Assembly (NCBI GenBank): GCA_037441385.1
Contig: JBBISH010000005.1
Location: 1 to 64,000, forward strand
Direction of reading: 5' to 3'
From: Myxococcales bacterium
GTDB lineage: Bacteria > Myxococcota_A > UBA9042
Length of the DNA: 64,000 nt
The translations under genes and the position numbers were made by a program. A model generated the notes under the pieces. It ran no database searches, had not been told where the DNA came from, and worked only from the letters and a program-made list of their open reading frames with translations. Positions 10,780-38,217 of this stretch are shown here, piece by piece (position 1 is the first letter of the stretch; every line of letters starts with the position of its first letter).

Positions 10780-11048
10780 GGATGTTCTGGCCTGTCGCCA
10801 CCGCCGCCCGACTTGGGACCGGGAATGCTTGGTTCGCTTGGCGTTGCGCTACCCAGATTCACGCGCGACTCGCTGAGACGCCTTGTCCTTTTGCCACTGC
10901 AGTTGCCAAGACGCCCAGAGCTTGAGACGTTTCCCACTGGTGTTCTAGCATGAGGTCTGCGCCTCTGTCTCTCGCAGGAATTGCCTTGTCGCCTTCGCCC
11001 TCCGCCCCCGCCGCTCCCGCTGCCGTTGCCGCCCAGGGCGACGGGGCG

Positions 11049-19240: not shown

Positions 19241-19297
19241 GTGCGGCCAACTCCTGAGTTTCTTAGTCCGGGTGCGGTGCTACGGCCCTAGCGCCGC

Positions 19298-20953
19298 CTA
19301 CATCTCCAGTCTAGGCTGGCTCTCTTCGGCTGTCAGCGGCGTGTCGTCGGGCGGCGATGCGCGGCGCGCGCGCGACTTGGACCACTCGCGCATCTCGGCC
19401 AGGCGCTCGCGCATGGTCTGCGACAGCGGAATGACTTCGCGGCAGGCCGAGACCAGGCTGTTGGTGCCGATGTCGATGCTGCCCTGACCCTCGTCAAAGG
19501 TGTCGTACAGCGCACCCACCACCGCTTCTTCCAGTTCCGAGCCCGAAAAACCAGAAGTTGCGTCCAACAGTTGCTTCATGTCGAAGAGGCCAGGGTCGCG
19601 GTGGCGCTTCTTGAGCTGGATCGCCAAGATCTCTTCGCGCTCGTTGCGGTTGGGCAGGTCGACAAAGAAGATTTCGTCAAAACGGCCTTTGCGCAGCAGC
19701 TCGGGCGGCAGCATCGACACGTCGTTGGCGGTGGCAATCACGAACACCGGCGAGGTCTTCTCTTGCAGCCACGTCAGGAACGTAGCGAACACACGGGCGG
19801 TGGTACCACCGTCCGACTGCCCCGAGCTTTTGGTGCCCGAAAAGCCCTTCTCCAACTCGTCGAGCCACAGGATGGCCGGCGCCACCGCCTCGGCGGTCTT
19901 GATCGCCCGGCGCATGTTCTCTTCGGACGAACCGACCAGCGAGCCGAACACCTTGCCCACGTCCAAGCGCAGCAGCGGCATCTGCCAAGCTTGCGAAATC
20001 GCCTTAGCGCTCAGCGACTTGCCGCAACCTGGCACGCCCAGCAGTAGGATGCCCTTGGGCGCCGGCAGGCCGAATTCCTGCGCCGCCGGGGCAAACGCGT
20101 TGCGCCGCTTGTTCAGCCATTCCTTCATGTGGATCAGGCCGCCCACCGACTCCATGCCCAGCGCGGTCTCGTAGAATTCCAGAATGCCCGACTTGCGGAT
20201 GATGTGCTTCTTTTCCTGCAAAATCGTCTTGAGGTGGAAGCCCTTGTCGCGCACGGTGGTCTTGGCGAACACCTGGCGCGCTTCTTGCTCGGTCAAGCCC
20301 AGGGCGGCTTCAGCGATCTCGCGCTGCAGTTCGGGCGACTCGAGCACCTTTTGGAAATTCTTGCCAAAACGCTGCGACTTGGCGCCGTTGAACGCCATCT
20401 CGCGCACGATGTCTTCCATGGTCTGGCGATCGGGCAGGTCAAAGTCGACCACCACCGCGTCTTTCTCCAGTTCCATGGGAATCTTGACGATCGGCGACAA
20501 GAACACCACGGTGCGCTTGCACTGCGCGTCGGCAAAGGTATGGGGCAGGTCGCGGACGCGGCGCGCCACCATGGGATCATTGAAGAAGGGGTGGAAATCG
20601 CGGAGCACCACCACCGCGTCGCGGGTCAGGTTGTTCGACACCCAATCCAGCGCGCGGATCGGGTCGCGGATATCGCCCGGCACGTCGGCGGTGTCGCAGC
20701 GGAAACCCTGCGAGCACGACCACTTGATGAGCTGGCGCGGCTGCCAAGCGGTCACGTCCCAGCGATCGCGCAGCACCGGCGAGTCCAGCACGGCCAGGTC
20801 GCGGAGCCACTTTTCCACGCGCTCTTCTTCGGCCGAAACCACGTAGACCAGCTTGTACTGGGCGCGGATCAGGTAGTGCAGCTCGTCGACGGCCGGCGGA
20901 ACGGGGCGAAACGGCGAAGCCTCGGCAGCCTCGGTGATCATGTTGGTCGACAT
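19298..20953 (-). CDS. Ycf46-family AAA+ ATPase
   Basis: EEER, LRDFHPF, GVPGCGKSLSAK, LRLDVG, SSEENMR, WLDELEK, PPELLRKGRFDEIFFVDLP, PLSQTMRE. Confidence 0.9.
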   Translation of the reverse strand: MSTNMITEAAEASPFRPVPPAVDELHYLIRAQYKLVYVVSAEEERVEKWLRDLAVLDSPVLRDRWDVTAWQPRQLIKWSCSQGFRCDTADVPGDIRDPIRALDWVSNNLTRDAVVVLRDFHPFFNDPMVARRVRDLPHTFADAQCKRTVVFLSPIVKIPMELEKDAVVVDFDLPDRQTMEDIVREMAFNGAKSQRFGKNFQKVLESPELQREIAEAALGLTEQEARQVFAKTTVRDKGFHLKTILQEKKHIIRKSGILEFYETALGMESVGGLIHMKEWLNKRRNAFAPAAQEFGLPAPKGILLLGVPGCGKSLSAKAISQAWQMPLLRLDVGKVFGSLVGSSEENMRRAIKTAEAVAPAILWLDELEKGFSGTKSSGQSDGGTTARVFATFLTWLQEKTSPVFVIATANDVSMLPPELLRKGRFDEIFFVDLPNRNEREEILAIQLKKRHRDPGLFDMKQLLDATSGFSGSELEEAVVGALYDTFDEGQGSIDIGTNSLVSACREVIPLSQTMRERLAEMREWSKSRARRASPPDDTPLTAEESQPRLEM

Positions 20954-21047
20954 CGATCTTCTCCGGCGGCGCCGCGGCGCCACGTGCTAGTTCGTTGGCA
21001 TCGCTTGGGGAATTCGCAAACGGACCCGCGGAGGGTCGCCCAAGCTG

Positions 21048-22943
21048 CTAGTGCAGGCCAAGGTCTTGTTGCAGGGACTTGATCATGCGCTCTTGCATGC
21101 CCAGGTCTTGCGCCAGCACCACCGTGGCGTCCAGCACCAACTCGATCTGGTCGGCGAGCTCGCCCGTCTTGTCGCGCTGGCGGTTGAGCCGATCGGCGGT
21201 GTCGCGTGCCAACAAGGCATTGCGCTTGCTTGCCACGATCGCTTCGGCCAAATCGGCGATCTGCTCGCCCATCTCGGCGGTAATCGCGGGCCCAGCTTTG
21301 GCGCTGCCCGCTTCCATCAGTTCGGCGATGCGCCGTTCGGCGTCCTTGACCTGCTGTTCGGCGTGGTCGGCGCGCAGCTTGTGGCGGTCCAATTCCCCTT
21401 GCAGGGCGCGGGCATTGCCGCCCTCGGCCGCGGCGGCCTCTAGCTTGAGCTCGGCCTTGGCCAGATCGCGCTGCACCTGCTGCAATTCCTCGCGCATGCG
21501 CTCGATTTCGCGAACCTTGGCCTTGAATTCGGGGTGCTCGGTAAAGTCGATTTCCTTGGGCTTCTTGTCGGCCGCCGACTTGGCCGCGTCCAGGTCTTTG
21601 CGCAAGTTGTCGATCTGGCGGCTCTGCTCGTTGATGCGGTCGCCCAGTTCGTCGTTGCGCTTGATGGCGTTGTGGAAGTCTTGCAGCAGCTTGCGCTTTT
21701 CGTCTTCCAGGCCGCTGATGCCCACGCCCATCTGCGCTTGACGTAGCTCCAGCTCTTTGGCGCGCAACTCGGCCTTCTTCTCTTGGATCAGGTTCTCTTT
21801 CTCCTCGATGATTTCCTGGAGCATGTTGATCTTGCGCTCGTAGGAATTGTTCGAGAAGTTGCCGTCGTTGATGATCGACTCCAGCGACAGCACTTGGTCC
21901 TTCAGCGCTCGCGCCTCGTAGTCCAGCTGATCGTACTGCCGCTGCAGTTCTTCGATCTGGCGATCCTTTTGCGTGACGCGGACTTTCAGGCCGGCGATGC
22001 GCTCTTGGGCGTCGGCGCTTTTGTCTTCCGCTTCCTTGGCGCGCCGCTCCAGCTCGCGGACCTTGGCCTCGGACTCCAGCGCGTCGTTCTCTTTGTGCGA
22101 AAACTTCTCGCGCTCTTGCTCCAGCTGCCGGCTCAGCGTCTGGGCGTGTTCCTTGAGTTGCGAGTACTTGTCGTACAAGCCCTCGTCGGCCACCGCGTTG
22201 CGTTCCATGTCGCGGATGCGGTTTTCGGCCGCCAGCGCGCGCTGCAGCAGCTTGCCGTTTTCGGCCTGGATCTCGGCCAAGGTGCGGCGGAGCGAGTCCA
22301 TCTCGGCGTGGTTGACCTGGATGACCGGCATCGGCGCGCTGGCGTTGGGCACCTGCGGCGCCGACATGGCCGCCGAGGGCACGCGCGACATCTGTGCCGA
22401 CGCGGGGCGCTCCGCCGGGACGGGCGCCCGTTCTACCGGCCGTTCTGCGGGGCGCTCCAGGGGTGGGCGCTCGGCGTGGCCGCCGCGGTCCAGGTTGCGC
22501 AGCTCGGGCAGGGCGCTGCGGGCCTCCAACTGCTCGCGGAGCTGCTGGGCCATGCCGGGCTGATGCATGGTCGGCCCAGGCATGTGCTGGCGGGGCGCCG
22601 GGCCCGCAGCGGGGGCCGGGGCGCGGCTCTGGGCCGGGGCGTCGCCGGCGCGGGCATGGATCTCAAAGCGCTCGCCGCAGCGGACCACGTCGCCTTCGCG
22701 GATGCCAGCGCGCTTGACCTGCTTGCCGTTGACAAAGGTGCCGTTGGCCGAGCCGATGTCCTTGATGTAGTAGGTCCGGTCCTGGTCGTCGTAGCCAATG
22801 CGCCCGTGGTCGCGCGAGACCGTCGACTCATTCGAGAAGATCTTGGAAACGTTGGGCTTGCGGCCGATGGTGACCGGCTCGATGTCCTGGCTCATCTGCA
22901 ACTGCATGAGCTTGCCGTCGACGTCGCGCCACTCCAGGTACAT
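21048..22943 (-). CDS. FHA domain + long coiled-coil protein
   Basis: FHA motifs TIGR, VSRDH, DIGSANGTFVNG; ~400-aa heptad-rich C-terminal part. Confidence 0.85.
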   Translation of the reverse strand: MYLEWRDVDGKLMQLQMSQDIEPVTIGRKPNVSKIFSNESTVSRDHGRIGYDDQDRTYYIKDIGSANGTFVNGKQVKRAGIREGDVVRCGERFEIHARAGDAPAQSRAPAPAAGPAPRQHMPGPTMHQPGMAQQLREQLEARSALPELRNLDRGGHAERPPLERPAERPVERAPVPAERPASAQMSRVPSAAMSAPQVPNASAPMPVIQVNHAEMDSLRRTLAEIQAENGKLLQRALAAENRIRDMERNAVADEGLYDKYSQLKEHAQTLSRQLEQEREKFSHKENDALESEAKVRELERRAKEAEDKSADAQERIAGLKVRVTQKDRQIEELQRQYDQLDYEARALKDQVLSLESIINDGNFSNNSYERKINMLQEIIEEKENLIQEKKAELRAKELELRQAQMGVGISGLEDEKRKLLQDFHNAIKRNDELGDRINEQSRQIDNLRKDLDAAKSAADKKPKEIDFTEHPEFKAKVREIERMREELQQVQRDLAKAELKLEAAAAEGGNARALQGELDRHKLRADHAEQQVKDAERRIAELMEAGSAKAGPAITAEMGEQIADLAEAIVASKRNALLARDTADRLNRQRDKTGELADQIELVLDATVVLAQDLGMQERMIKSLQQDLGLH

Positions 22944-23231
22944 CCGCGCCTGCCTCCCCGCTCTCCGTACCACCGCCGCGGTACCAGCTGCGACCGCGTG
23001 CCGCAGTCACAGCGCCAGTCCAGCGCACAGTCGCGGCACCCGCCCTATGTTTCACTGGAAGCTGCAAACTTGCAACCCTGGGCACGCGGTCTGCGCAATT
23101 CCGACCGACTCCTTCGCCATGCGAGCGGGCAGAACGGCCAAGTCGCGCCGCGCAGCCGGTTCGCGCTTGATCCGACTTGGCTGGACGAGCGGCTGCGATC
23201 GTGGCGGCCGGGCTCTTGGGCTTGGGGTGGA

Positions 23232-25270: not shown

Positions 25271-25672
25271 TCAACATTTCTGGCCGCGCCGCCGCACCTG
25301 CGCCCAGCCCGACCGCAGTGACGGCGCGACTTGGGCCCAGCCCAGACCCAGCCGCCGCAGCAACCACACGGGCAACCCGTGGTCCGGCCAACGCAGCACC
25401 AAGGGCCCCCAGCGCAGCGCCGCCAGCTTGCCCATGACCGCCAGGCGCGGCACGGGCGGGTCGGCGCGGTGGTTGGTGTCGCCACGGGTTTCCAGGCGAT
25501 CGCCGCGCACCGAAATCACGCGGTGCAGCACGAGAACTCCAGGGCGATCTGAAATAAAACCTATGATATCGCCAATTTCAAGCTCGTCGGCGGGCCGGAG
25601 TTGGACCTGAAACGGCGTCCGCAGCGGCCACATCGACGCGCCGTGCACGGGCCACCAGGTCGCCTCTGTCAT
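25271..25672 (-). CDS. S24/S26-family (signal-peptidase-like, Ser-His) peptidase
   Basis: GASMWP, GDII, VLHRV, TRGDTN..ADPP; start chosen at MTEATWW. Confidence 0.75.
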   Translation of the reverse strand: MTEATWWPVHGASMWPLRTPFQVQLRPADELEIGDIIGFISDRPGVLVLHRVISVRGDRLETRGDTNHRADPPVPRLAVMGKLAALRWGPLVLRWPDHGLPVWLLRRLGLGWAQVAPSLRSGWAQVRRRGQKC

Positions 25673-25726
25673 ACCAGTTCCGTCCCAATCGGATTGAAAA
25701 ATCCGGCGATTCTTCGGGCCCGAACT
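25672..25726 (-). mobile_element. Degenerate partial copy of MITE family A
   Basis: TACCAGTTCCGTCCCAATCGGATTGAAAAATCCGGCGATTCTTCGGGCCCGAAC aligns to the reverse complement of ~14722-14776. Confidence 0.65.
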
Positions 25727-25736
25727 TGGGTGCGCA

Positions 25737-26939
25737 TCATTCCACGTCACCCACGCGCACACCGCGGCCTTTCTGCGGGCGGTAGATGGGGAAGATGAAC
25801 TTGCCGGGGCGCGGCGGGTGGCTGCCGCCGTCTGGAATACTCGCCCAATCCTCTGCGGTTAGCTTGGCCCCGCGGGCCTGCTCGTAGCCGCGGAGCTCGG
25901 CGCGCGTGCGCGTGTGGAAGTGCGCGGGGGGCGTCTTGTAGTCACCGGTCGTCTTGTATGCCTCGCCGGGGCAATAGAAGCACATTCCGCTGCCCGCGCA
26001 GGTCATGCAGCCGTCGCGGTCCTTGTTCTTCCAATTCTGCAGTCCTTTGAGCTGCGGCGAGTTCTCCCAAATGTCGACCAACCGGTGCTCGCGCAGGTGG
26101 CCCAGCTCCATCGGGAACATGACGCAGGGCCACACCGCGCCGTCGGGCGAGATATAGAACTGGGTGCGACCAGCGCCGCACGGGCCTTCCTCGGGACGCT
26201 CGTGGATGGGCACCATGTTGTTGCCGATCGACTTGGCCGCGGCGTACGCCAGCGCCTTGGCCCGTTCGCGCTGCACGTCGCTCAGGTTCAGCAAGTCCAG
26301 GTCTTCGCGCGCCAGGTGGTCGCGGTAGATCGACGTGCCAAACTTGACGACCATGCCCTGACGCGTGAAGTGGCCAAAGAACTCGGGAATTTCCTCGATC
26401 GTCTCGGGCTGGACGATGAACTCGATCTCCACGGCCACGCCAGCCGCCTTCAGGCAGGCGATGCCGGCCATGGTCGCCACCCACGAGCCCGGCCGGCGCG
26501 TGAACCGATCATGCACGTCGGCCCGCAGGCTGTAGACCGAGATCTTGGCCTCCATCACGCCGGCCGCCGCCAGCCCTTGCGCGATGGCGGGGGTGATGGC
26601 GCCGGCATGGGTGCGAATCACCTGGCGGAATCCAAGCTTGGCCGCGGACTGAATCAGCTCCAGCAGGTCGGCCCGCTGGGTCACTTCGCCGCCGCTCCAG
26701 GCGACGAACCAAACGCCCAGCTCGGCCAACTGCTCTAGCACCGCCAGCCACTCCGCGGTCGTCAGCTCGGGCCAGGTGGTGCGGTTGTCCAGGTAGCAGT
26801 GCTGGCAATCCAACTCGCAGCGGTAGGTCACGTCGATTTGCACGCGCGCCGGCCGGCCGCTGCTCTGGTAGGCCGCGACCAGGCGGTCCAGGAAATCGTC
26901 CTGCTGCGGCGTATCTTGTTGAGCCATTCCCAATTCCAT
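25737..26939 (-). CDS. Radical SAM / SPASM-domain peptide maturase
   Basis: CELDCQHC (CxxxCxxC), SGGE, SPASM CGAG..FYISPDGAVWPC and CMTC...C..CPG. Confidence 0.9.
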   Translation of the reverse strand: MELGMAQQDTPQQDDFLDRLVAAYQSSGRPARVQIDVTYRCELDCQHCYLDNRTTWPELTTAEWLAVLEQLAELGVWFVAWSGGEVTQRADLLELIQSAAKLGFRQVIRTHAGAITPAIAQGLAAAGVMEAKISVYSLRADVHDRFTRRPGSWVATMAGIACLKAAGVAVEIEFIVQPETIEEIPEFFGHFTRQGMVVKFGTSIYRDHLAREDLDLLNLSDVQRERAKALAYAAAKSIGNNMVPIHERPEEGPCGAGRTQFYISPDGAVWPCVMFPMELGHLREHRLVDIWENSPQLKGLQNWKNKDRDGCMTCAGSGMCFYCPGEAYKTTGDYKTPPAHFHTRTRAELRGYEQARGAKLTAEDWASIPDGGSHPPRPGKFIFPIYRPQKGRGVRVGDVE

Positions 26940-26957
26940 CCCGTCGCAGTGCGGCGA

Positions 26958-27746
26958 CTACTCCCAGAGCACCCTCTCTAGTAGCGGGAGCGGGGTGTCC
27001 AGGCAATGCGACAAGGAGTAACTGGGCACGCTGCCCAGCAAATTGACCAAGTGCTCCGTCATGCGATGGGTAACCCACGGAGTCGCGTAGTAGGTCTGTT
27101 CCAGCAGTCGCTGCACGGACCACGTCAGGGGCAGCGGCTCTTTGGCGGTGCTGCTGCGGTCGGGTCCCAACGTGAAAATTCGCCGCAGCGGCGCAACGAA
27201 CGGATGGTCGCCTGGCCCGGCGCGGTGGATGTTTTGGAACCACACCTGCCAGCCGTCGTCGCCGGGCATCAGCAAGCTGGTGTCGTCGTGCAGATAGCGG
27301 CCGTGGAAGCGCCGGGCCAGCGTTGACTTGCCCGCTCCAGACTGGCCGCAAACCACCACCGCCTCGTTGGCGCGCCGAAGGGTCGCGCCGTGCAGCAGAA
27401 TACCGCCGCGACGCAAGGCCAGTGCCAGCATGGTCGCCAGGGCGGTCGAGCTGCGCAAGTCCAGCTGATCATAGGGGCTCTCTGGCACAGGCCAGTGCCA
27501 AACCGCAGTCATCGAGGGCCAGTCGATGTCTACCGCCGTGCGCCGGGCAACGATGCGACAGCCGCTGTCGGTCCACGTCATGAATTGTGCGTAGTCTTCG
27601 TCGCTGGGCGGCGCGTCAAAGGGCAGCAGATCGACCTGCAGCCGCTGTCCTTGCCGCGCCGGGCGTTCGCCGCAGCCAAGGGGAAACCAGGCCTGGCCGT
27701 GGGTGTTCACCGCGACGTCCAGCGGTCCAAGCTGCCAGCCGTACAC
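26958..27746 (-). CDS. HPr-kinase-related P-loop protein (RiPP-cluster kinase-like)
   Basis: LLHGA...VVCGQSGAGKSTLA...LHDD motif set. Confidence 0.7.
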   Translation of the reverse strand: MYGWQLGPLDVAVNTHGQAWFPLGCGERPARQGQRLQVDLLPFDAPPSDEDYAQFMTWTDSGCRIVARRTAVDIDWPSMTAVWHWPVPESPYDQLDLRSSTALATMLALALRRGGILLHGATLRRANEAVVVCGQSGAGKSTLARRFHGRYLHDDTSLLMPGDDGWQVWFQNIHRAGPGDHPFVAPLRRIFTLGPDRSSTAKEPLPLTWSVQRLLEQTYYATPWVTHRMTEHLVNLLGSVPSYSLSHCLDTPLPLLERVLWE

Positions 27747-27755
27747 AGCAAAGAC

Positions 27756-27950
27756 TCAGCAGGGATCGCCAAAGCCCGCCGTTGGGCACGCGACCGTGTC
27801 GGGGCAGCTGTTTTGCGTGCAGCCCGACTGGATCAGGCCCTGCAGCAGCCCGCGCTGCGAGTGCAACGTCGGCGCCGAGTAGGCTCGCCGCTGCTTGGTC
27901 TGCTCCGCAGGTTTGGCGTTGGCCTTTGCGTGCGTCTGTGTTTTCTGCAT
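27756..27950 (-). CDS. Putative RiPP precursor peptide (64 aa)
   Basis: AGGGAG RBS; leader with RRAYSAPTL (YxxPxL); core GCTQNSCPDTVACPTAGFGDPC; adjacent to kinase, rSAM and near PqqD. Confidence 0.75.
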   Translation of the reverse strand: MQKTQTHAKANAKPAEQTKQRRAYSAPTLHSQRGLLQGLIQSGCTQNSCPDTVACPTAGFGDPC

Positions 27951-28007
27951 AGGTCGTCTCCCTGCAAGTCTTCGCTGGGCGCGGGGCTTGTGCCGCGGGC
28001 GCCGCTG

Positions 28008-31000
28008 TTAGTACACCACCACCAAGCTGCCGTCCGTCGAGCCGATGACCAGGTCGGCCACGCCGTCGCCGTTGAAGTCGCCCACCGGCGCGAAGCTGAG
28101 TGGCACGAGCGCTGCGGTCGACACCACACCCCAGTTGGTCTTGGTGTTGTTGGCTGGGTCGTAGATGGCGATGTCGCTGTTGATGAACGAAACCTCGTTC
28201 GGAATGGCCGAACCGGGCCGCTGAACGCCCAGTCGCACGATTACGCGGTTGCTGCCGCCCGTATCGGCGGCCGACGACCGGCCGTGCACGAGGTCGATGA
28301 TCGGGTTGGCCGTGACCGGGCGGTCGGCAAAGTTGCCGATGGACTTGATGCCAAAATGCCAATCGCGCAGCCGGTAGCCACCGGGGACCAGGAATAGGTT
28401 GCTGGTACCGGCGATAGCCACCTCGGTGCCCATCGGCACCACCTTGCCCAGGTTGTCCTTCAGGTAGGCGCCGTGTAGCCAGTAGATGCCGCCACCGCCC
28501 TTGGCTGCCAAGCCCGAGTAGTGCTGCACCGCCAGGTCCGGAATGGCGTCGTTGTCCAGGTTGACGACCTCGGTGAACATGCCAAAGCCGCTGGTCGACA
28601 CGTTCAAGTTGCCCAGCACCTGCACCGCCGTGGAGTCCGCGCTACCCGTAGTCATCGCCTTGGACAGCCCAAGATCCTGGGCGCCCACCAGCGGACGGCC
28701 CTTGATGATCCACAGCGCTTGGTTGGCGCTGGGGGTGAACTGGCCAATCGCCAAGTCGTCGTACTGCTTGTTGCCCGCGTCGGCGAGCATGTTGCCCACG
28801 CCGAACGGGAACGCGAAGTAGGCCGCGCCCACCTGATCCACCAGGTGAATGGTGGCTACGTTGTTGGTCGCCAAGCTGGCCGGGTTGTCGATGTCGATGA
28901 GCGTGGGCGTGGTCTCGTTCCAGGCCGGGTTGCCCGGAATCACCACCACGCGATCGTAGGTCAACGTCGACTGCAGCGCCGAGATGGCGATGTCTTGGAT
29001 GGGCTTGCCGGCAGCGGTCACGTCGCCGTTGAAGTTGCCGATGGCGTTGGCGCGCACCACGCCGTCGCCAAGCGGGTTAGTGACTTTGCTGACGATGACC
29101 GCCGGGTTGGCCGCGATCGCCGCGCCCTTCTTGCCCAAGTAGACGTGGACGTAGCGCGGGTTCGACGTCCCTGCTCCCACGCCGACGATCATGTCGTCCA
29201 CCCCGTCGCCGTTGACGTCGCCGCTCTTGCCCACCGGCATGCCCAGGCCGCCCGCGTTCGTCAGGCACACGTGGCTTGGGTAGGCCGACGGGTTCGACAA
29301 GTCGATGTCAGTCAAGTTGAACTTGACACGCCCGTACACCACGCACAGCGGAGCGGTCGCGCCGCCGCCCAAGGCAAAGTCGCCCAGGCCGTCGCCGTTG
29401 AGATCGCCCACCGCGGCCACGCGCTGGCGCACGTCGGCCACGTTTTGCGCGCCGCCCAGGAGCAGGTTGGCGTAGTGCAGGCGCAACGCGTTGGTCGACA
29501 GCACGTTCGACAGCGGCGAAGCGTTGCCGGCGGCGTCCAGCGCCTCGACCGCGAAGTAGTACGCCGACGAGCCATTGTCGATCATCGGAGCAAACTTGCA
29601 CGGATCGGCCAGATCGCGCTCGTCCGGGCCCTCGACGAAGACCGCGTCCGCCTGACCCGCCGCCTTGGGGGCACCAATCGTCGAGAACAACACCTTGCTG
29701 CCATCGCAGGCCGCGTCAAAGTCGGCCTGGGTGTTGATCGGTGCCTTGCTGTAGCGCACAGCGTAGGTCTTGGCCGTGCCCACTGTGCCGTTGTCGCCCA
29801 CGGCCGTGAAGTTCAGCTTGGCCATCGGCCGGCGTGGGTTCAGGTCCGAGGTCAAGAAGTCGGCCAACGTCACCTTGGCCGGCGCAGTCCAGTCGACCAG
29901 GACGATCACGCTGGCCTTGCCGGTGTTGCCGGCGGCATCGACCACGGTCGCCGTCACGGTGTTGGTGGCGTCCTCGGTCAGCGTGGCGAACTGGATTTCA
30001 ACGCTTTGGCTGGTGCCGCTCAGGGCCACCGGCAGGGTCGGCGCCGTGGCTGCCAGCGCGCCGGTGGTGCTGCCCACGGTGTTGGTCAGCGTGGTGAGCT
30101 TGCCGCCAGCCAAGCCGCTGTCGGTCGCGCTGAGTTTGAGGTGCAGCTGGTGACCGGGGCTACCGTTGAGGTCGCGCGCTTTGCCCAGCAGGTTGACGGT
30201 GCTGCCACCGGCCGGCGTGTTGACCCCGAGTACCTGGTCGGCCACGAAGGCAACCTTGGGGTTGGTCAGGTCGGCCTTGAGGGGCAGGGCACCCGAGCTG
30301 CCGGCCACGGCGGCCGTGGCGTCCAGCGCCAACGCCTCGACCGTGGTGTTGTCGCCGTCGGCCACGGTCAGGCTGAAGGTTGCCTTGCCGTCCGCCGTGG
30401 GCGCGGCCTTGCCGACCTCGGTGCTGCCCTTCTTGAGCTGCAAATTGGCGACCGCGCCGCACGGCCCCACAAAGGCCGCGGTCACGCTGACCGTCACGCT
30501 CGCGCAGTCGCTGCCCGCGGTGGCGCAGTTCTGGGTGTTGTAGCTGCCCGAGCTGCTCAGGCCCTGCAGCGACACCAGGCAGCCGGTCAAAGCGACCTCA
30601 AAGTCGCGGTCGGCCGTGGTCACGTTGCCATTGACGTCGGTACCCGTGAGCCGCGCCTTGTAGAAGTTGCCATTGCCGAAGGGGATCGTCACCAAGACGG
30701 CCGGCTCCAAGCCGCCCGGGTTGGCGACGTTGCCGCTGGCCACCGCCTTGAAGCTGCCGCAGTTCGCAAAGTTGCTGTCGCAGCCCGTGGCCAGGTCCAG
30801 GCTCCAGGTCGCGGCGTCGGTGGTGCTGAAAGCCACCTGCACTTGGTAGCCGCCTTGGCTCGGCGCCGCATCGTCCTTGTCGCCAAACTTGGCGGCCTGC
30901 GCCGGTGCGGTAATGGCGAGCGTGGGCGGCAGCAGGTCGACCGTGACCTTGCTGGGGGTCGTGCCAAAGACGCCCGTGTTGCCGCAGACGTCGCTCAGGT

Positions 31001-34000
31001 CGGCGGTCAGGGTGTGGTCGCCTTGGCTGAGCAGCTTCCACTTGGCATCGGCGAACATGGCCTGGCCGCCGCTCATGGTCTCGTTGGCCTTGCTCACACC
31101 GCCGTCTTTGATCAAGACGCTGGCGCCGTCCACGTCGTTGGCGGTCGAGGTGACCATCACGTCGAGCGGCGAGCCGACGATGATCTTACTGCTCGAGGGC
31201 GACGCGAAACCGCCGGTCGGCTTCTGGGTGTCGACGACCAAGGGGTTCAACGTCTTGACCACGCTGGTATTGCCCACCAGATCGGTGGCGGTGGCGGCGA
31301 ACACTTGCGTGCCTTCGCCGGCCAACGTCACTGCCAGGCCGCTGGCCGTGCTGGTCGAGTTGCCCGTGGCCAGCTTGGCGCCATTGCCCACGATCACCAC
31401 GCTGGCGGCCTCCGACGTGGCCACGCTGAAGGTGAACGTGCCGCCCGGCGCCGCCGAGTCGGGCGCAGACTGGCTGGCCTCGTTCAAGCAGGCCGCCGTG
31501 GCTCCGGGTGCCGCCGGCGGATCGAACGTGGTCACGACCGGCGCCACCGTGTCGATGAGGATGGTGCGCTGCTTAGCCCAGCTCTGCAGGCTCGAAAGGC
31601 TGGAAGTGGGCGCGATCAAAGTGCCAAACGAGACCTCGGCCATGAAGGTATACAGGCCGTCGGGGATGGTGGCCGGGATGGAGTAGTTCATGACCTGGCC
31701 AGTGATGGTCAGATTGACAACCTCTTTGTAGCCCGCCGTGGCGCAGGCCGCGCCGGTGATGCCCGGCGACTTGCTGCAGATACGCAGCGTGCCGCCAATC
31801 GGTACGCCGGCAATGTTCACCGAGCCGCTGCGCGGCGCGCCCTTGTTCATGCCAGCTACGCACGTGCTCTGATAGCACAGGCCCAGCGGGCAGTTGGCGT
31901 TGCTGGTGCAGCTGGTGCCCTCGGCCACGTTGCTGGGGGTGTTCATGTCGACGCGGGCTTGCTGCGCCTTGACGGACGCCGTGATGGTCGCCGTCCCCAC
32001 ATTGCCGTTCTGGTCGGTGATGGAAAGCGACAGCTGTACCTTGTCGCCGTCGGGCAGGCTGACCAAGCCGAACGCAACGTTGGCGCCGACCGTGTCGGTC
32101 GCGTCGGACTGGGCGGTGCCGGTGAACGTCCCGGTGACCTTGCCGGTGTCGTCTTTGATGACCAGGGTGGCCGTCGCGCCCTTGTTGACGCCGAAGACCT
32201 GCATGATCACGTTGGTCAACACCGAACTATCCGTCGGGTCGCCGACGTCGTCGGCCGCGACAAAGTACAGCGCTTTCTTGGTCTTGCCGGTGGGGAAGAC
32301 CAAGTCGTCGAACACGGGCGCCACGCGGTCGACCACCACGCTCACGGCGCTGCTCGTCGCGACCTGGCCGGCGCTGTCGGTCACGGAGGCCACCAGGGTG
32401 CACGTGCTCTGGTCGGCCAGCGTGATTGCCTGGAACGTAAAGGTATTGCCGCTGCTCTTGCCGGTGTACGACTGCGGAGCCGCCGTGCCGCAAGCCACGT
32501 CGAGCTTGATGGGGCTGCCGTCTTCCACGTCGGTCACGCTGACGGTGGCCGTGGTGGCGCAATCCTGCGCACCGGCCAAGCACTCGCCGGACTTCAAGTT
32601 GAAGGTCGCTCCAGCCGCGGGCGCCGTGATCGCAATGGCCGGCTTGGCCGCCTTGTAGGTCACGGTGATCACGATGCTGTAACCGGTCGCGTCGGGCTGA
32701 GCACCCGGCGCCGCTGCGCTCATCTGCACGGTCGTGCTCGGCTTGGCCGACAGACCCGCCACGACGAACGTGTACGTGCCCGCACTCGTTTCGCTCACAT
32801 CCACCGCAGCCGCCACGCCGTCCACCAGAACTTGCACCGTCGCGCTGGTCACAGGCGCACCGCCCACTTGCGTCACTTCGGCGGTGAAGCTCAGGCTGTC
32901 TTGGGTGGTGGTCACGTTGCCCTTGGGCGAAACCAGCTTGACGATCGGGGCCTGCGAGACCAGCGTGACCACCAACGGGGCGGCGATCGTGGGATTGCCG
33001 ACGCTGTCCGTGGCGGTGGCGTTGACCACGTTGACGCCCGGATCCAGCGTCACGGCGGCAAAGGTGACGGAAGTGTCGCTGGCCGCCGTGTTCTTGCACA
33101 GCTTTTCGCCGGTCGACGACGCGATGCACACCTGGGCGGCGTCGGCGATCGACAGGGTCACGTCGGTCTGATAGCCGGGGATCTGCGGGCTGACGTCAAA
33201 ATCCTCAAAGGTGGTCAGTGTCGCCTTGTTGGGCAGCGAGAACGCAATCGCCGGGCCGGTCGTGTCGATGTGGACAACGCGGCTGACATCGCCGCACAGG
33301 CCCACCGCCGCGCTGTCCGAGGCCTTGTTGCCAAAGTCGTCGACCGCCTCGAACGAAATCACGTAGGTACCGTCGGCCAAGTTGCCCGCGGCGGCCAGCT
33401 TGAGCGTGCCGGTCAGGCCAATGGCCGACAGGGTGCCCAGGGTCTGCGGGTCGCTTGCCACCCCTTGATCCGAGACGATGGTCGCAATGGCCGCAGCCCC
33501 CTTGAGGTTTTGGGTGGCCAGCGTGATCGGCAGTTCGTGCGTGGTCACGGTCAACTCGGCCGCTGGCGAGACGAAGTTCAGGCAGGGCGCTGGGACCGCA
33601 ACGGTGGCCGTAATTTCTTCCGAAAGCGCAGCGTTAGGCGCTGCGAAGTCGCCGTAGCCGTCGGTGACGCGGCAGGTGATGGCGGTACCGACAAGGATGG
33701 TGTCGATGGCGACGGGGATGGTCAGCGTGCCGTCGCCGGTCACGGTCGCTTTGCCGATCGGCTGGTCCGGCCAGTTGATGCCTACGCCCGATTTGCGGCA
33801 GAACACGGCCACTTCCGAGTCGACCGTGCCCTGCTTGACGTCGACGGCGAACTTGGTCTCGTAGGTGCCGTTCGTGCCAAAGTTCTGGTCGTCTTTGGCC
33901 AGCAGCACGGCGCCCGCCGTTGGCGAGTTGATGGCCAAGGTGGCCTGGTCGACAAACGCTTGCACCGGCCAAGACGCCGACGTGCTCAGCCCGCAGGCGT

Positions 34001-35174
34001 TGGTTGCCTTGACGGCGACGTTGTAGGTCTTGCTGGTGGTGAGCGACAGGGTCAGGGGGAAGGTGCCGTCCGCGCCGATCGTGGCCGTGCTGGCGGTTCC
34101 GCCGTCGAGCTTGTACTCCACACTGGCACCGATCCCCAAGGTGCTGGCTGTGCCGGTCGAAACCACTTGAATGCCAGGCGTTTGCGGGTCGGAGTCGTTG
34201 CCCAGGGTCACGGCCTTGGGCAGCTGCACGGCCAGCGACGGCGCCTCGGTCGACAGCGTGACCGCCAGGGGAGCGGACGGCTGCGAGCCGCGCTCGGGGT
34301 GCTGGCTGTCGACGACCACGGCCACGATGTTCAGCTTGACGCCGTCCAGTCCGCCGCTCTGGCTCGAGAGGGTCGCGGTGATCGGGGTCGAGCTGGCGCC
34401 GCCGAGCGACACTTTCTCGGTGGTGACCGACTTGCCTTCTGCATCGGTGAACTGCAAGAACGCGTCAGTGCAGCCGGTCGACGTGGTGGTGACGGTAAAG
34501 GTGTACTGGAAGCCGGCGTCGCTGTTGCCGTCCGTGGTGATGCAGGGCGTGTCGATCGCCGCAATGGTCGCCTGGCACGCGGCACCACAATCCAGCACCA
34601 GCGACTTGGTTTTTTCGCCGCTTTGGGTGTTGGCCGTCACGGTGGCGGTCAGGTTCACCCCGGTTTGTCCGCAAGCGATGGTGACGCCCTTGAAGTCGGC
34701 CTTGCCACCCTGCAAGACCACCGGGCCCAAGCTGGAGTTGCCCACCTTCAAGGTGACTTGCGAGCCATCCGCCGCCTGCGCCGCGGTGACCACGACGTTG
34801 ACTTGCACACCAACCGTTGCCGGATCCAAATCTGCGTCCGCGCTGATCTTGGCGCTGGTGGCCACGTCTTCCAGGGCGTTGCCCACCGCGGTCTCTACGT
34901 ACAGGTTCACCACTGGCACGGGCGGCGGGACGTCGGCCGTGTCGCCGGTCCCGATGTCCTCGGCATCGGCCAGGGTGGTGTCCGTGTCCGTCACGGCATC
35001 CGGGCACGGCCCAAAGATGTCATTGCCGCACTTGGGGCCCACCACGGGGATGTCTGCGTCGCAACTACTCAGGGCGAGCAGCGACAAGGCGAGTGCGAGC
35101 AGGCCGGGCCAGCGACTAGCGAACAGGGGCTGGCGGCGGACCGGGGTCTGGTTGGCGGTGGAGGGGCGGTTCAT
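28008..35174 (-). CDS. Giant surface lipoprotein with tandem Ig-like repeats, FN3-like domain and C-terminal FG-GAP beta-propeller
   Basis: AGGAG RBS before ATG 35174; lipobox LSSC; repeated DxxGN and (V/I)DxxxP Ig junctions; GDLNGDGLGD, GDVNGDGVDD, GDFNGDGVAD repeats. Confidence 0.85.
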   Translation of the reverse strand: MNRPSTANQTPVRRQPLFASRWPGLLALALSLLALSSCDADIPVVGPKCGNDIFGPCPDAVTDTDTTLADAEDIGTGDTADVPPPVPVVNLYVETAVGNALEDVATSAKISADADLDPATVGVQVNVVVTAAQAADGSQVTLKVGNSSLGPVVLQGGKADFKGVTIACGQTGVNLTATVTANTQSGEKTKSLVLDCGAACQATIAAIDTPCITTDGNSDAGFQYTFTVTTTSTGCTDAFLQFTDAEGKSVTTEKVSLGGASSTPITATLSSQSGGLDGVKLNIVAVVVDSQHPERGSQPSAPLAVTLSTEAPSLAVQLPKAVTLGNDSDPQTPGIQVVSTGTASTLGIGASVEYKLDGGTASTATIGADGTFPLTLSLTTSKTYNVAVKATNACGLSTSASWPVQAFVDQATLAINSPTAGAVLLAKDDQNFGTNGTYETKFAVDVKQGTVDSEVAVFCRKSGVGINWPDQPIGKATVTGDGTLTIPVAIDTILVGTAITCRVTDGYGDFAAPNAALSEEITATVAVPAPCLNFVSPAAELTVTTHELPITLATQNLKGAAAIATIVSDQGVASDPQTLGTLSAIGLTGTLKLAAAGNLADGTYVISFEAVDDFGNKASDSAAVGLCGDVSRVVHIDTTGPAIAFSLPNKATLTTFEDFDVSPQIPGYQTDVTLSIADAAQVCIASSTGEKLCKNTAASDTSVTFAAVTLDPGVNVVNATATDSVGNPTIAAPLVVTLVSQAPIVKLVSPKGNVTTTQDSLSFTAEVTQVGGAPVTSATVQVLVDGVAAAVDVSETSAGTYTFVVAGLSAKPSTTVQMSAAAPGAQPDATGYSIVITVTYKAAKPAIAITAPAAGATFNLKSGECLAGAQDCATTATVSVTDVEDGSPIKLDVACGTAAPQSYTGKSSGNTFTFQAITLADQSTCTLVASVTDSAGQVATSSAVSVVVDRVAPVFDDLVFPTGKTKKALYFVAADDVGDPTDSSVLTNVIMQVFGVNKGATATLVIKDDTGKVTGTFTGTAQSDATDTVGANVAFGLVSLPDGDKVQLSLSITDQNGNVGTATITASVKAQQARVDMNTPSNVAEGTSCTSNANCPLGLCYQSTCVAGMNKGAPRSGSVNIAGVPIGGTLRICSKSPGITGAACATAGYKEVVNLTITGQVMNYSIPATIPDGLYTFMAEVSFGTLIAPTSSLSSLQSWAKQRTILIDTVAPVVTTFDPPAAPGATAACLNEASQSAPDSAAPGGTFTFSVATSEAASVVIVGNGAKLATGNSTSTASGLAVTLAGEGTQVFAATATDLVGNTSVVKTLNPLVVDTQKPTGGFASPSSSKIIVGSPLDVMVTSTANDVDGASVLIKDGGVSKANETMSGGQAMFADAKWKLLSQGDHTLTADLSDVCGNTGVFGTTPSKVTVDLLPPTLAITAPAQAAKFGDKDDAAPSQGGYQVQVAFSTTDAATWSLDLATGCDSNFANCGSFKAVASGNVANPGGLEPAVLVTIPFGNGNFYKARLTGTDVNGNVTTADRDFEVALTGCLVSLQGLSSSGSYNTQNCATAGSDCASVTVSVTAAFVGPCGAVANLQLKKGSTEVGKAAPTADGKATFSLTVADGDNTTVEALALDATAAVAGSSGALPLKADLTNPKVAFVADQVLGVNTPAGGSTVNLLGKARDLNGSPGHQLHLKLSATDSGLAGGKLTTLTNTVGSTTGALAATAPTLPVALSGTSQSVEIQFATLTEDATNTVTATVVDAAGNTGKASVIVLVDWTAPAKVTLADFLTSDLNPRRPMAKLNFTAVGDNGTVGTAKTYAVRYSKAPINTQADFDAACDGSKVLFSTIGAPKAAGQADAVFVEGPDERDLADPCKFAPMIDNGSSAYYFAVEALDAAGNASPLSNVLSTNALRLHYANLLLGGAQNVADVRQRVAAVGDLNGDGLGDFALGGGATAPLCVVYGRVKFNLTDIDLSNPSAYPSHVCLTNAGGLGMPVGKSGDVNGDGVDDMIVGVGAGTSNPRYVHVYLGKKGAAIAANPAVIVSKVTNPLGDGVVRANAIGNFNGDVTAAGKPIQDIAISALQSTLTYDRVVVIPGNPAWNETTPTLIDIDNPASLATNNVATIHLVDQVGAAYFAFPFGVGNMLADAGNKQYDDLAIGQFTPSANQALWIIKGRPLVGAQDLGLSKAMTTGSADSTAVQVLGNLNVSTSGFGMFTEVVNLDNDAIPDLAVQHYSGLAAKGGGGIYWLHGAYLKDNLGKVVPMGTEVAIAGTSNLFLVPGGYRLRDWHFGIKSIGNFADRPVTANPIIDLVHGRSSAADTGGSNRVIVRLGVQRPGSAIPNEVSFINSDIAIYDPANNTKTNWGVVSTAALVPLSFAPVGDFNGDGVADLVIGSTDGSLVVVY

Positions 35175-35263
35175 TTCACTCCTGCTGGTCGCGGCCTGGC
35201 GAGTCACTTTGCGTGTGCGGCTCCAGGCCATCGTTCGTCGGCGGACGGGTGCCGCCGGCTGGC

Positions 35264-35695
35264 TCAATTCTTGTGCCGGGTAGCCGTGTTGGCTTCTCCG
35301 GCGGGACCCATGGGTGCTCCACGTGCGGTTGCGCCAAGCGACACTTGCGGCGGCGTGCTCGCCAAGGTAGTCGGCTTTGCGGAACTAGACAGGGGGACGG
35401 CCGCGATTGGCTCACATTCCACGGCAATTCGCCGCTCGACCAGCTCGTTCACGAACCGGTCCAAGTCACTGGCGGCCTGTTCCCACTCGACCTCAAAGTC
35501 TTCGACCAATTGCGCGATCAGGGTGTCGCGACGTGCCGGGCCGGCCATGAGGCTGCGAAAAATCGCGACGGCCGTGGGCACCTCTAGGCGGTGCAGGCCG
35601 CGATCGTCGGTGACTACGAAGATCTCGCCGGCAACCTCGCGTGCCGCAGCAGCGGGGTGCATGGTGTAGGCGGTGTTCGCTGGCAGTAGGGGCAT
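35264..35695 (-). CDS. PqqD-family RiPP recognition element (RRE) protein
   Basis: REVAGEIFVV...TAVAIF...LIAQLVEDFEVEWEQAASDLDRFVNELVERRI. Confidence 0.85.
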   Translation of the reverse strand: MPLLPANTAYTMHPAAAAREVAGEIFVVTDDRGLHRLEVPTAVAIFRSLMAGPARRDTLIAQLVEDFEVEWEQAASDLDRFVNELVERRIAVECEPIAAVPLSSSAKPTTLASTPPQVSLGATARGAPMGPAGEANTATRHKN

Positions 35696-37043: not shown

Positions 37044-37284
37044 GCCCGCAGTTTCGACGATCGCCCGGTGGCAGGCAACCTGACGGGGTCGCGCAGGCGA
37101 TGGCCGAAGCACGGCGACAAAGGACGACGCGGAAATCACACCTGAATCTGACGCAAGATCGGCAACTGGGGCATGGCAACCCCAGCCGGTGCGGCCGCCG
37201 AACAAGTGCGGTTGACAGTCGCAGCCCGCTGGCGCACTTTGAATGCGAATGTGGCCACTTCGCGCCCGGCCGCAGGAGGACGTC

Positions 37285-38217
37285 ATGAGCAGCCCAGAGA
37301 AGGTCAAGGCCGTCAAAGCTGAAGCCAAAACGGACATCAACAAGATCCAAAAGAAGGCCGAAGCCGACGTCCAAGCCGTCAAGAAGACGGAGGCCGCCGC
37401 CGTCAAGTCGGGCCAAAAGGCCAAGAAAGACGCCGCGGCAGACACCAAGAAGCAGGGCGAGGTGATCGTCGACGTGGCCACGGGCGAGATCCTGGCGCGC
37501 AACGAACAAGCCAAGGCCGTGCTCAAGGCCGAGTACAAGGCCATCGAGATCAAGCCGACCACGGCGACCGGCAAAGACGGCGCGGCGGCGGGCGCCAGCG
37601 ATGGCAGCGGCGGGGCGACCACGGCGGGCAGTCTGGATGCCGACTTGGCCGACCTGGACTTGGCGGCGGCAGCGGCTGGTGCGGCGCTGATTGCCGTGGC
37701 GGCGGCGGCCGTGGATTTCATCTTGGACTTGGCCTTTGGCAAGAGCACTGCGGCGGCCAAGGCGCCCCAGGAGTCGAGCACGGCCAACCGTTCGTTCGAC
37801 TACCGCGGCAACTTCAATTTCCGCATCGAAGTCGGCGGCATCGCAGCGGGCGCCTTCCGCGCCGTGGACGGCCTGTCCACCTCGACGGAACTCATCGAGT
37901 ACCAGGGCGGCGGCGACATGTACGCGCGGCAGATCCCTGGCCGGCCCAAGATTGCCCCGGTGACCTTGAAGAAGGGCTGGGTGGTCAGCGCGGCGCTGTG
38001 GCAGTGGATGCAGGACACGATGGAAGGGCGCTTCTCGTTCCACAACGTGTCCGTGGTGCTGATGGATGACGACGGCCAGACCGATGTGGCGCGGTATGAA
38101 CTGTCGCAGTGCTGGCCTTCGTCGTGGAAGGGCTTCCAGCTCGACGGCATGGGCAACGAGGCGATGGTCGAAGAGCTTGAGCTGCAGGTTCGCGGCATCT
38201 CGCGCGTCGCGCCCTAG
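37285..38217 (+). CDS. Phage tail tube (T4 gp19-like / eCIS tube) domain protein with long N-terminal extension
   Basis: AGGAGG RBS; C-terminal FNFRIEV..AF..VDGL...IEY..G...PGR.K...VTLKKG...LWQW...WPS.W.G..LD...VEELEL. Confidence 0.85.
   Translation: MSSPEKVKAVKAEAKTDINKIQKKAEADVQAVKKTEAAAVKSGQKAKKDAAADTKKQGEVIVDVATGEILARNEQAKAVLKAEYKAIEIKPTTATGKDGAAAGASDGSGGATTAGSLDADLADLDLAAAAAGAALIAVAAAAVDFILDLAFGKSTAAAKAPQESSTANRSFDYRGNFNFRIEVGGIAAGAFRAVDGLSTSTELIEYQGGGDMYARQIPGRPKIAPVTLKKGWVVSAALWQWMQDTMEGRFSFHNVSVVLMDDDGQTDVARYELSQCWPSSWKGFQLDGMGNEAMVEELELQVRGISRVAP

Follow-up and report, generated by a model that had tools for sequence, protein, structure and literature searches.

An uncharacterised SynChlorMet/ScmC-related RiPP cassette of Myxococcota, probably for a crosslinked peptide paired with a giant lipoprotein

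Introduction

What is made by a set of peptide-modifying genes whose candidate substrate is a 64-residue peptide, and what place does a gene for a surface protein of about 2,400 residues have in its midst? These questions are raised by a locus at positions 25271–35695 of a 64,000-nt stretch of a contig from a Myxococcales metagenome-assembled genome (MAG); the whole stretch is referred to below as the window. Six minus-strand open reading frames (ORFs), separated by small gaps or overlapping, encode there, in this order, a PqqD-family recognition element for peptides made by ribosomes and modified after translation (RiPPs), that is, a RiPP recognition element (RRE); a giant lipoprotein; a short precursor peptide; a P-loop protein related to ScmC; a radical S-adenosylmethionine (rSAM) enzyme with a SPASM domain; and an S26-type peptidase. 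These six co-oriented genes had been described in an initial annotation of the same DNA, and all of the ORFs were found again with their domains or motifs.

By the generic gene criteria, the sequence of the locus places it among the RRE-dependent rSAM/SPASM RiPP systems, its maturation chemistry being predicted. The reading towards which we lean is that it represents an uncharacterised RiPP cassette related to SynChlorMet/ScmC, the product of which is probably a crosslinked peptide paired with the giant lipoprotein, with a chemistry predicted from the enzyme families.

Conservation of the cassette

The rSAM enzyme belongs to a sharply bounded family: 68 clusters match it at 315–933 bits (39–100% identity), the next match scores 192 bits, and every cluster that carries an organism name comes from a Myxococcota or 'Deltaproteobacteria' MAG. 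An alignment of 35 of these clusters, spanning the identity range, was used to scan one genome per species and gave 72 loci. Tier 1 comprises 34 of them (L001–L033 and L035), with rSAM enzymes 40–82% identical to that of the window and present in all by construction; tier 2 comprises 14 (L034 and L036–L048) from Myxococcota and Bradymonadia, with rSAM enzymes 31–36% identical, and the remaining loci have more remote ones.

When the window proteins were searched against the 34 tier-1 loci, all in Myxococcota MAGs, by tblastn and blastp, the order RRE, giant gene, peptide, P-loop gene, rSAM gene and peptidase was always as in the window. The RRE was present in 31 of 34 loci, giant and P-loop genes in 33 each, the peptidase in all 34 and a flanking tetratricopeptide repeat (TPR) gene in 33, and the misses coincide with contig ends. 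The retention of a six-gene arrangement in 34 related loci lies far beyond chance, and it upholds the earlier proposal that these genes form a coherent RiPP-type maturation set.

Searches of tier 2 with profile hidden Markov models (HMMs) of the tier-1 proteins found the full order from RRE to rSAM, with the giant gene included, in L036 (giant protein of 1,581 aa), L039 (2,356 aa), L046 (2,327 aa) and L048 (1,850 aa). L034, L038 and L042 show this giant-containing order too, up to a contig end that cuts off its upstream part. In L043 and L044 the cassette is adjoined by giant-like matches, and the contig of L045 ends at the peptide. Finally, L037 and L047 are compact, with the RRE directly before the peptide and no giant gene, so that RRE, peptide, P-loop protein, rSAM enzyme and peptidase can be regarded as the functional core. 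On this distribution across loci, the giant gene is a frequent and old addition inside the operon. At four loci (L036, L038, L046 and L048) none of the other flanking genes of the window was detected at E≤1e-3, and the retention of the giant gene between RRE and precursor despite differing flanks argues against plain inherited synteny.

Table 1. Features of the cassette, with positions in the window.
Feature	Position	Strand	Remarks
PqqD-family RRE	35264..35695	minus	143 aa; domain at about residues 1–95, then low-complexity tail
Giant surface lipoprotein	28008..35267	minus	2,419 aa with the TTG start; about 2,388 aa with Met32 as start
C-terminal 620 aa of the giant protein	28011..29870	minus	Ig-like domain and beta-propeller in the predicted structure; last ~350 aa lie in the hypervariable block
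Precursor peptide	27756..27950	minus	64 aa
ScmC-like P-loop protein	26958..27746	minus	262 aa; PEPCK/HPr-kinase fold
Radical SAM/SPASM maturase	25737..26939	minus	400 aa; without fused RRE
Soluble S26B-type Ser-His peptidase	25271..25672	minus	Putative leader peptidase; longest ORF reaches 25762
Hypervariable block	25500..29100	minus	C-terminus of giant gene, precursor, P-loop gene and rSAM gene; from DNA identity and dS

Some loci show further peculiarities. A pair of M16 peptidase genes is translationally coupled to the RRE gene in both compact loci (L047:3003-8815 and L037:5964-8826), with overlapping stops and starts in L047, where the pair is preceded by a gene for a 1,001-aa S41 protease with PDZ, CARDB and DUF11 domains; this M16/S41 module of compact, Bradymonadia-type cassettes is possibly an alternative processing or partner module that replaces the giant lipoprotein. 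Two convergent P-loop/rSAM modules lie on the single 6.8-kb contig of L044 (L044:426-6765), one of them with a motif-bearing precursor and a giant-like fragment. Six tier-1 loci (L013, L014, L028, L029, L030 and L033) come from MAG records titled Klebsiella pneumoniae or 'uncultured Enterobacteriaceae'; these names look wrong, and the genes flanking the Myxococcota-type locus in these records are 62–86% identical to those of the window. Among the more remote loci, three from Omnitrophota (L049, L052 and L055) combine S26-like, PqqD, rSAM and ScmC-like genes, and their proteins fall below the NCBIfam cutoffs, except for the L052 peptidase, which scores 55 bits with sigpep_I_arch, just above the cutoff. 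The L052 cassette (L052:6080-12221) consists of genes for an NTP_transf_5 protein, an S26-like peptidase, PqqD, two rSAM enzymes and an ScmC-like protein, with a 23S-rRNA-intervening-sequence-protein gene between the two rSAM genes. No ORF with the precursor motif described below was found in these three Omnitrophota cassettes.

The precursor peptide family

The peptide of the window, whose ATG is preceded at 7 nt by a Shine-Dalgarno-like GGGAGA, consists of a variable N-terminal leader, the segment YSAPTLHS, a short helix, Cys44 and a 20-residue core with three further Cys. Searched by tblastn, it finds a match only in L001 (59% identity); in an unfiltered ORF listing, a short ORF stands between the giant and P-loop genes in all 33 tier-1 loci that retain this interval. 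These short ORFs share a common plan: a variable, polar N-terminus, closed in most cases by a basic residue and Pro; the motif [YW]xxPx[VIL]x[ST]; some 8–12 residues with helical hydrophobic spacing; a Ser/Thr-rich turn; and a Cys followed by a 7–25-residue tail in which Asp, Glu, Pro, Thr and Gly abound. In an alignment of 23 precursors, every sequence has Pro27 and Cys44. In 12 of the 14 distant loci, an ORF of this kind turned up directly upstream of the P-loop gene in a regular-expression screen that demanded the motif and a later Cys. The check suggested by the initial annotation, namely a short ORF beside the rSAM homologues, thus comes out positively in all 33 close loci that retain the interval and in 12 of the 14 distant ones. 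Its label of a Cys-rich precursor suits the window peptide, with 4 Cys, and does not extend to the family, in which one Cys is invariant and 16 of 34 tier-1 precursors (window included, counted by eye) have a single Cys.

Database copies of the precursor (8 clusters) carry no Pfam domain and are named 'hypothetical protein' only. We take the leader motif to resemble the RRE-binding segments of lasso leaders and of PqqA. A lipobox at the Cys was also considered for these peptides and rejected, since the preceding residues are mostly unfit for a lipobox and there is no long hydrophobic segment.

The giant lipoprotein and the hypervariable block

The giant protein matches Pfam Big_13 and FG-GAP and is made up of many Ig-like domains and a C-terminal FG-GAP propeller. 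Met32, at about 35174, suits a signal peptide better than the TTG start does, and the signal peptide ends, after a hydrophobic stretch, in the lipobox LSSC; of 32 full-length orthologues, 25 fit the lipobox pattern and the remaining ones look similar. With 37 Cys, the window protein falls within the range of its orthologues (34–45). An AlphaFold2 model of the last 620 aa, computed from an alignment of 29 of the 32 full-length sequences, combines an Ig-like domain and a propeller with high confidence measures (predicted local distance difference test, pLDDT, 90.7; predicted TM-score, pTM, 0.91). The best Foldseek matches of the propeller in the PDB are integrin alpha headpieces (3nid_A, E 2.4e-7; query TM-score 0.36–0.42) and PL11 rhamnogalacturonan lyase, and Atlas assigns the C-terminus to FG-GAP families at a borderline score of 0.90.

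It is this C-terminal end that ties the giant protein to the peptide genes. Compared with the close relative L002, the flanking AAA, FHA and LysM proteins are 96–99% identical, against 71% for the peptidase, 66% for the RRE, 55% for the rSAM enzyme and 42% for the P-loop protein, and the giant protein itself reaches 61% over its last 350 aa vs 76% over the rest. The same block is seen in DNA identity, which amounts to 90–95% in the flanks, 46–67% at 25.5–27.9 kb, 64–68% at 27.9–29.1 kb and 78–85% over most of the giant gene. For another pair, L035 and L032, identities of 89% (TPR), 79% (peptidase), 71% (RRE) and 69% (N-terminal part of the giant protein) contrast with 41% for the rSAM enzyme, 32% for the P-loop protein and 40% for the giant C-terminal end, and the pairs L006/L007 and L009/L023 display a like pattern. 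A second dip in DNA identity to L002, at 31500–32400 inside the giant gene (57–61% vs about 80% around it), lies far from the peptide module and may mark another variable, surface-exposed domain.

Partial Mantel tests across 28 loci (378 pairs) were controlled for the N-terminal part of the giant protein and for LysM; seven loci (L008, L012, L018, L019, L026, L028 and L031), each with one of nine proteins missing, were left out. Identity over the last 350 aa of the giant protein tracks that of the rSAM enzyme (partial r 0.53) and of the P-loop protein (0.43), each with p 0.0005, whereas the N-terminal part shows no link (partial r 0.04, p 0.27); the peptidase reaches 0.22 despite adjoining the rSAM gene, and the RRE 0.19. 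Rates of synonymous substitution (dS) between the window and L002 are 0.99–1.03 in the rSAM and P-loop genes vs 0.35–0.48 in the flanks, and between L019 and L028 they are 0.02 (P-loop gene) and 0.11 vs 0.27–0.46. Being above the flanks in one pair and below them in the other, dS indicates that the module has a history different from that of its surroundings and has been exchanged between lineages. The initial annotation had spoken of an embedded adhesin-like gene; on the sequence comparisons given here the giant gene is no incidental insert and forms a conserved and co-diverging part of the locus.

The maturation enzymes

A free-standing RRE is present, as the first protein of the cassette scores 30.9 bits with Pfam PqqD against a cutoff of 23.4. 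Its best NCBIfam match is lasso_PqqD_Strm, at 22.7 bits vs a cutoff of 70, and the ScmD model of NCBIfam gave no match at E≤0.01.

The rSAM enzyme, whose database homologues begin 4 codons downstream (396 aa), matches Pfam Radical_SAM (68.5 bits) and SPASM (43.6 bits). The CX3CX2C motif (Cys37, Cys41 and Cys44) and six more Cys are invariant in 35 of 35 sequences, and its nearest PDB structures by profile are SkfB (E 2.4e-33), PqqE (6c8v, E 1.1e-26) and the SuiB-type 5v1q (E 2.7e-19). NCBIfam scores, each given with its cutoff, are 130.9/500 for NirJ2, 127.7/500 for AhbD, 105.2/381 for PqqE, 103.5/400 for ScmE, 97.8/625 for StsB, 82.5/265 for the mycofactocin rSAM (MftC), 65.7/300 for SkfB and 59.1/850 for AlbA; lying below every cutoff, the enzyme groups with neither the cofactor enzymes nor any characterised maturase. 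A role in defence was discarded, PADLOC having detected only a generic rSAM-core likeness to pVip (33 bits) and no match for the other five queries.

The P-loop protein has the Walker A sequence GQSGAGKST, and His119, Gly134, Gly139, Lys140 and Thr142 are invariant, with the motif GxxGxGK[ST]T, in 22 of 22 sequences that were picked for ORF lengths near 262–295 aa. Its AlphaFold2 model (pLDDT 92.2) matches, in Foldseek, ATP-PEPCK (E 6.5e-7) and HprK/P (1knx, E 1.4e-4; 1kkl, E 1.2e-3), and Pfam Hpr_kinase_C gave no match to the protein. On kinship with ScmC the models differ: the protein-database entry for exactly this protein is annotated with PF27840 (ScmC), an assignment with no counterpart in the Pfam scan run here; 29 of its 30 nearest Atlas clusters are labelled ScmC (score 0.96); the NCBIfam model ScmC (TIGR04249), however, gives 27.9 bits vs a cutoff of 125, with HprK_rel_A at 23.1 and HprK_rel_B at 21.3, each vs 200. 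A profile search of 1.84 billion representatives retrieved 177 proteins when the limit was E≤1e-30 and 9,636 when it was E≤1e-10, and named matches are nearly all 'hypothetical protein'. On fold and motif, the P-loop protein is considered a putative ATP-dependent modifying enzyme.

As for the peptidase, orthologues of 128–137 aa suggest Met31 as its start, which shortens the longest ORF (163 aa, 25271–25762) to 133 aa (25271–25672). In an alignment of 16 peptidases its GxSMxP, GD, HR and GD boxes do not vary, the best PDB profile matches are SEC11A/C (E 2.5e-5), bacterial signal peptidase I being matched as well, and the NCBIfam model sigpep_I_arch gives 30.9 bits vs a cutoff of 51.85. No hydrophobic segment precedes the catalytic Ser, by reading of the sequence rather than by a transmembrane predictor, and from these features the protein looks like a soluble Ser-His enzyme of the S26B type. 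By a term search, 'signal peptidase', 'S26', 'S24' and 'SipW' have 0 occurrences in a 2023 review of RiPP leader proteases (PMC10885120).

Proposed mechanism

Put together, these components suggest the following course of events. The free-standing PqqD/RRE protein would bind the 64-aa precursor via the [YW]xxPx[VIL]x[ST] leader motif and hand it to the rSAM/SPASM enzyme, which, going by its family, would modify the core, at the invariant Cys or starting from it. The most likely outcome is a thioether crosslink such as those of sacti-/ranthipeptides or of QhpD, with SkfB, PapB and QhpD serving as models. The ScmC-like P-loop protein would then carry out an ATP-dependent step, most simply a phosphorylation if its fold is taken as a guide, and the S26-type peptidase may cut off the leader near the small residues ahead of the Cys, at an AxA-like site. 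Finally, the product would act together with the giant lipoprotein, probably as a ligand or bound partner of the integrin-like C-terminal propeller, the part of the protein that, by the computed co-divergence, appears to diverge and recombine as one block with the precursor, the P-loop gene and the rSAM gene. A precedent for an rSAM-crosslinked peptide that joins co-encoded periplasmic proteins is QhpC of QHNDH, the substrate of QhpD (PMC7876137).

Several points weigh against this reading. No exporter is linked to the cassette, the nearest ABC exporter gene in the window lying about 12 kb off (10950–12857), which leaves the route of a cytoplasmically matured peptide to a surface lipoprotein unexplained; for the same reason the description of the cassette as 'complete' in the initial annotation is not demonstrable. 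The two loci without a giant gene imply that the cassette can work without the giant protein, and the co-divergence of the propeller could be due to hitch-hiking of recombination tracts, the regions being contiguous. The reaction type is not fixed by family, as the rSAM enzyme lies below the trusted cutoffs of all characterised maturases, and for the P-loop protein a role as a scaffold, or as an ATPase without kinase activity, is conceivable. With respect to the precursor, an Ala, Gly or Ser right before the first Cys is found in just 30 of 46 precursors (by eye), a weak basis for the proposed cleavage site, and the invariance of the Cys in tier 2 is partly the product of the screen itself. 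Two evolutionary arguments that might have been added fall away as well. Positive selection finds no support, given that dN/dS is <1 for every gene and pair (0.01–0.16 in the flanks, 0.05–0.74 in the cassette, the RRE and peptidase values being perhaps inflated by over-long ORF starts). As for horizontal replacement of the rSAM gene, the approximately unbiased test does not reject {window, L001, L002} as one clade (p 0.339); exchange is read here from the DNA identity and dS profiles, and no donor is claimed.

Alternative explanations

The cassette might instead make a free, diffusible RiPP, such as an antibiotic or a signal, with the giant lipoprotein as a syntenic passenger that was inserted once and inherited vertically. 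The existence of the giant-less cassettes L037 and L047 speaks for it, as does the fact that the flanking TPR, LysM, FHA and AAA genes are syntenic across the close loci too, which makes synteny there weak evidence. We nevertheless regard this explanation as rather unlikely, because the giant gene keeps its position between RRE and precursor in L036, L038, L046 and L048 despite different flanks, because the C-terminal 350 aa diverge in step with the rSAM and P-loop proteins even when the rest of the giant protein and the distance between species are controlled for, and because the peptidase, though directly adjacent, co-diverges less. A closer bond than that of ligand and receptor can also be imagined, in which the giant protein would contain the peptide for good, as a structural or cofactor-like subunit, and there is no reversible ligand. 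QHNDH offers a precedent, with the rSAM enzyme QhpD, a leader protease and co-encoded partners; the QhpD-crosslinked peptide QhpC undergoes cleavage in the cytoplasm before its export and then joins periplasmic proteins encoded alongside it (PMC7876137). The thioether-crosslinked gamma subunit of QHNDH sits between propeller and Ig-like domains, and the giant protein has a propeller and Ig-like architecture; the cores around the Cys are, in addition, rich in Asp, Glu and Pro. Against such a subunit, the rSAM enzyme is not near QhpD (no QhpD model is among the 25 best NCBIfam matches listed), an ABC exporter is not linked, a Trp for a quinone is missing, Pfam detects neither haem nor redox domains in the giant protein, and the cores are very short (7–25 residues) and highly variable, which together make the idea improbable.

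Much harder to sustain are two further explanations. According to one of them, the substrate of the rSAM and P-loop enzymes is the giant lipoprotein itself, with its 37 Cys, and the small ORF is an accessory or a decoy. A SPASM rSAM enzyme that installs ranthionine links on a protein substrate has been reported (PMC13692751), the RRE gene abuts the giant gene and giant orthologues have 34–45 Cys; however, a protein with a Sec/lipoprotein signal would be exported unfolded, the compact loci put the RRE directly before the small precursor, and the RRE-type leader motif of the small ORF is kept in 45 other loci, so that this explanation has very little to recommend it. The other one, a peptide-derived redox cofactor, similar to PQQ or mycofactocin, for cytoplasmic or periplasmic enzymes and with no connection to a surface protein, is suggested by the resemblance of PqqD, the PqqE-like rSAM/SPASM enzyme (6c8v, E 1.1e-26), the small peptide and the peptidase to such pathways, and by the M16 peptidase pairs upstream in the compact loci. 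It is equally hard to credit: cofactor precursors are highly conserved, whereas the cores here are hypervariable even among close relatives; no PqqB/PqqC-type domain was seen among the window ORFs scanned with Pfam, and there is no MftD-like gene; and no model of a cofactor-biosynthesis enzyme is reached by the rSAM enzyme (in rounded scores, NirJ2 131 vs 500 and PqqE 105 vs 381; MftC 82.5 vs 265), a grouping that the initial annotation had named as a ground for refutation.

The pairing of a modified peptide with the giant lipoprotein, which we prefer, can be sharpened into a more specific and distinctly speculative form, which we think unlikely. The locus would then be a polymorphic lock-and-key system, in which the key is an rSAM-crosslinked, perhaps phosphorylated peptide and the lock is the integrin-like propeller at the tip of the lipoprotein, both being swapped, along with the tailoring enzymes, as one allelic module between related Myxococcota.

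Relation to known systems

To our knowledge, SynChlorMet (TIGR04248-04251: ScmC, ScmD, ScmE and ScmF) has been defined only bioinformatically and has no known product. Together with the HPr-kinase-related systems, SynChlorMet/ScmC contains the nearest named relatives of the locus, in agreement with the kinship to SynChlorMet and HPr-rel-A proposed at the outset. Common to it and the cassette are a P-loop protein of the ScmC kind (PF27840), a chaperone of the PqqD family and an rSAM/SPASM enzyme resembling PqqE. Unlike SynChlorMet, it has one rSAM enzyme rather than two (ScmE and ScmF), its proteins remain below the cutoffs of the Scm models with no match to ScmD, and it further comprises an S26-type peptidase, a precursor family that can be identified and, within the operon, a gene for a giant lipoprotein.

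Lasso clusters of the paeninodin type are described as using an HPr-kinase homologue to phosphorylate the precursor before further maturation (PMC8498205). The cassette shares with phosphorylated lasso systems and with HPr-rel-A/B an HprK/PEPCK-fold P-loop protein neighboured by a PqqD-family RRE and by a precursor whose leader is of the YxxP type. In contrast to the lasso systems, Pfam scans of window ORFs revealed neither a lasso cyclase nor a B2 protease domain, as already noted in the initial annotation, and the HprK_rel_A/B models are below cutoff; moreover, lasso kinases act on a C-terminal Ser, whereas the window precursor ends in Cys and the C-termini of its family vary. With the maturases of sacti- and ranthipeptides and QhpD (SkfB, AlbA, PapB, CteB and QhpD), the likeness consists of an rSAM/SPASM enzyme with an RRE and a Cys core with Asp, Glu or Thr nearby, SkfB being the best PDB profile relative of the rSAM enzyme; QhpC, moreover, is a crosslinked peptide with exported partner proteins encoded alongside it. 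The differences are that the RRE is separate here, that many cores have a single Cys, that the leader peptidase would be of the S26 type and that no equivalog cutoff is reached.

A further comparison concerns evolution rather than chemistry. The agrBDC and comQXP loci are polymorphic peptide–receptor ('pherotype') loci. Like them, the present locus has a hypervariable block, between conserved flanks, that combines the gene for a presumed modified peptide with those for its modifying enzyme or enzymes and with the neighbouring portion of a gene for a putative binding protein, and that is exchanged between lineages. Unlike them, it has no histidine kinase or regulator, and its putative partner, for which binding and signalling are conjectural, is a 2,400-aa lipoprotein with an integrin-like propeller. 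No component of the window cassette reaches any NCBIfam cutoff, and no literature on this gene combination was found in open-licence PMC and bioRxiv, subscription-journal papers being outside this search.

Coding evidence and genomic surroundings

Third-position GC of 0.76–0.89 in the six minus-strand ORFs shows the minus strand to be coding, in a window whose GC content is 0.62–0.70. A 2,382-aa antisense ORF opposite the giant gene (28521–35669, plus strand) failed the codon-position GC filter that the minus-strand gene passed and was dismissed as a high-GC artefact. A terminator scan found no minus-strand terminator-like sites inside the cassette, a scan for sigma-70-like promoters returned 0 sites with a model that is uninformative for the host phylum, and neither Rfam matches nor tRNAs were found in the 64-kb window.

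Housekeeping genes of the window encode RecA, LexA, the ATP synthase a, c and I proteins, an RseP-like M50 protease, LipA, TsaB/TsaD and RNase HII. At 18830–22973 on the minus strand, downstream of genes for LysM and CpoB-like TPR lipoproteins, lie genes for a DUF1257 protein, a 561-aa AAA ATPase and a 641-aa FHA-domain protein; the AAA and LysM proteins are 97–99% identical in the closest MAGs and syntenic across most tier-1 loci. On the plus strand, a 324-aa ORF (37243–38217), with a match to the T4 gp19 tail-tube family over its C-terminal 130 aa (111 bits), stands isolated beside EcsC-like and LexA genes, with no other phage-tail or contractile-injection genes seen among the window ORFs scanned. 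Lastly, a 568-aa protein (60850–62556, minus strand) contains several Kazal-type serine-protease-inhibitor domains (75 bits), which are uncommon in bacteria.

Biological implications

The locus provides a concrete, conserved precursor family and leader motif for a cassette of the ScmC type, and the ScmC-like group is a large one, mostly annotated as 'hypothetical'. It also adds a soluble S26-type peptidase to the candidate RiPP leader proteases, and it presents a RiPP module with both a genetic and an evolutionary tie to a giant surface protein. If the lock-and-key form of the system were true, its alleles would represent specificity types for cell–cell recognition, adhesion or signalling, and the locus would be a RiPP analogue of the agr/comQXP pherotypes placed on a surface adhesin. 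A matched pair of peptide and propeller would, if real, be a new bacterial way to recognition specificity and would open a route to new crosslinked peptide chemistry in uncultured freshwater Myxococcota.

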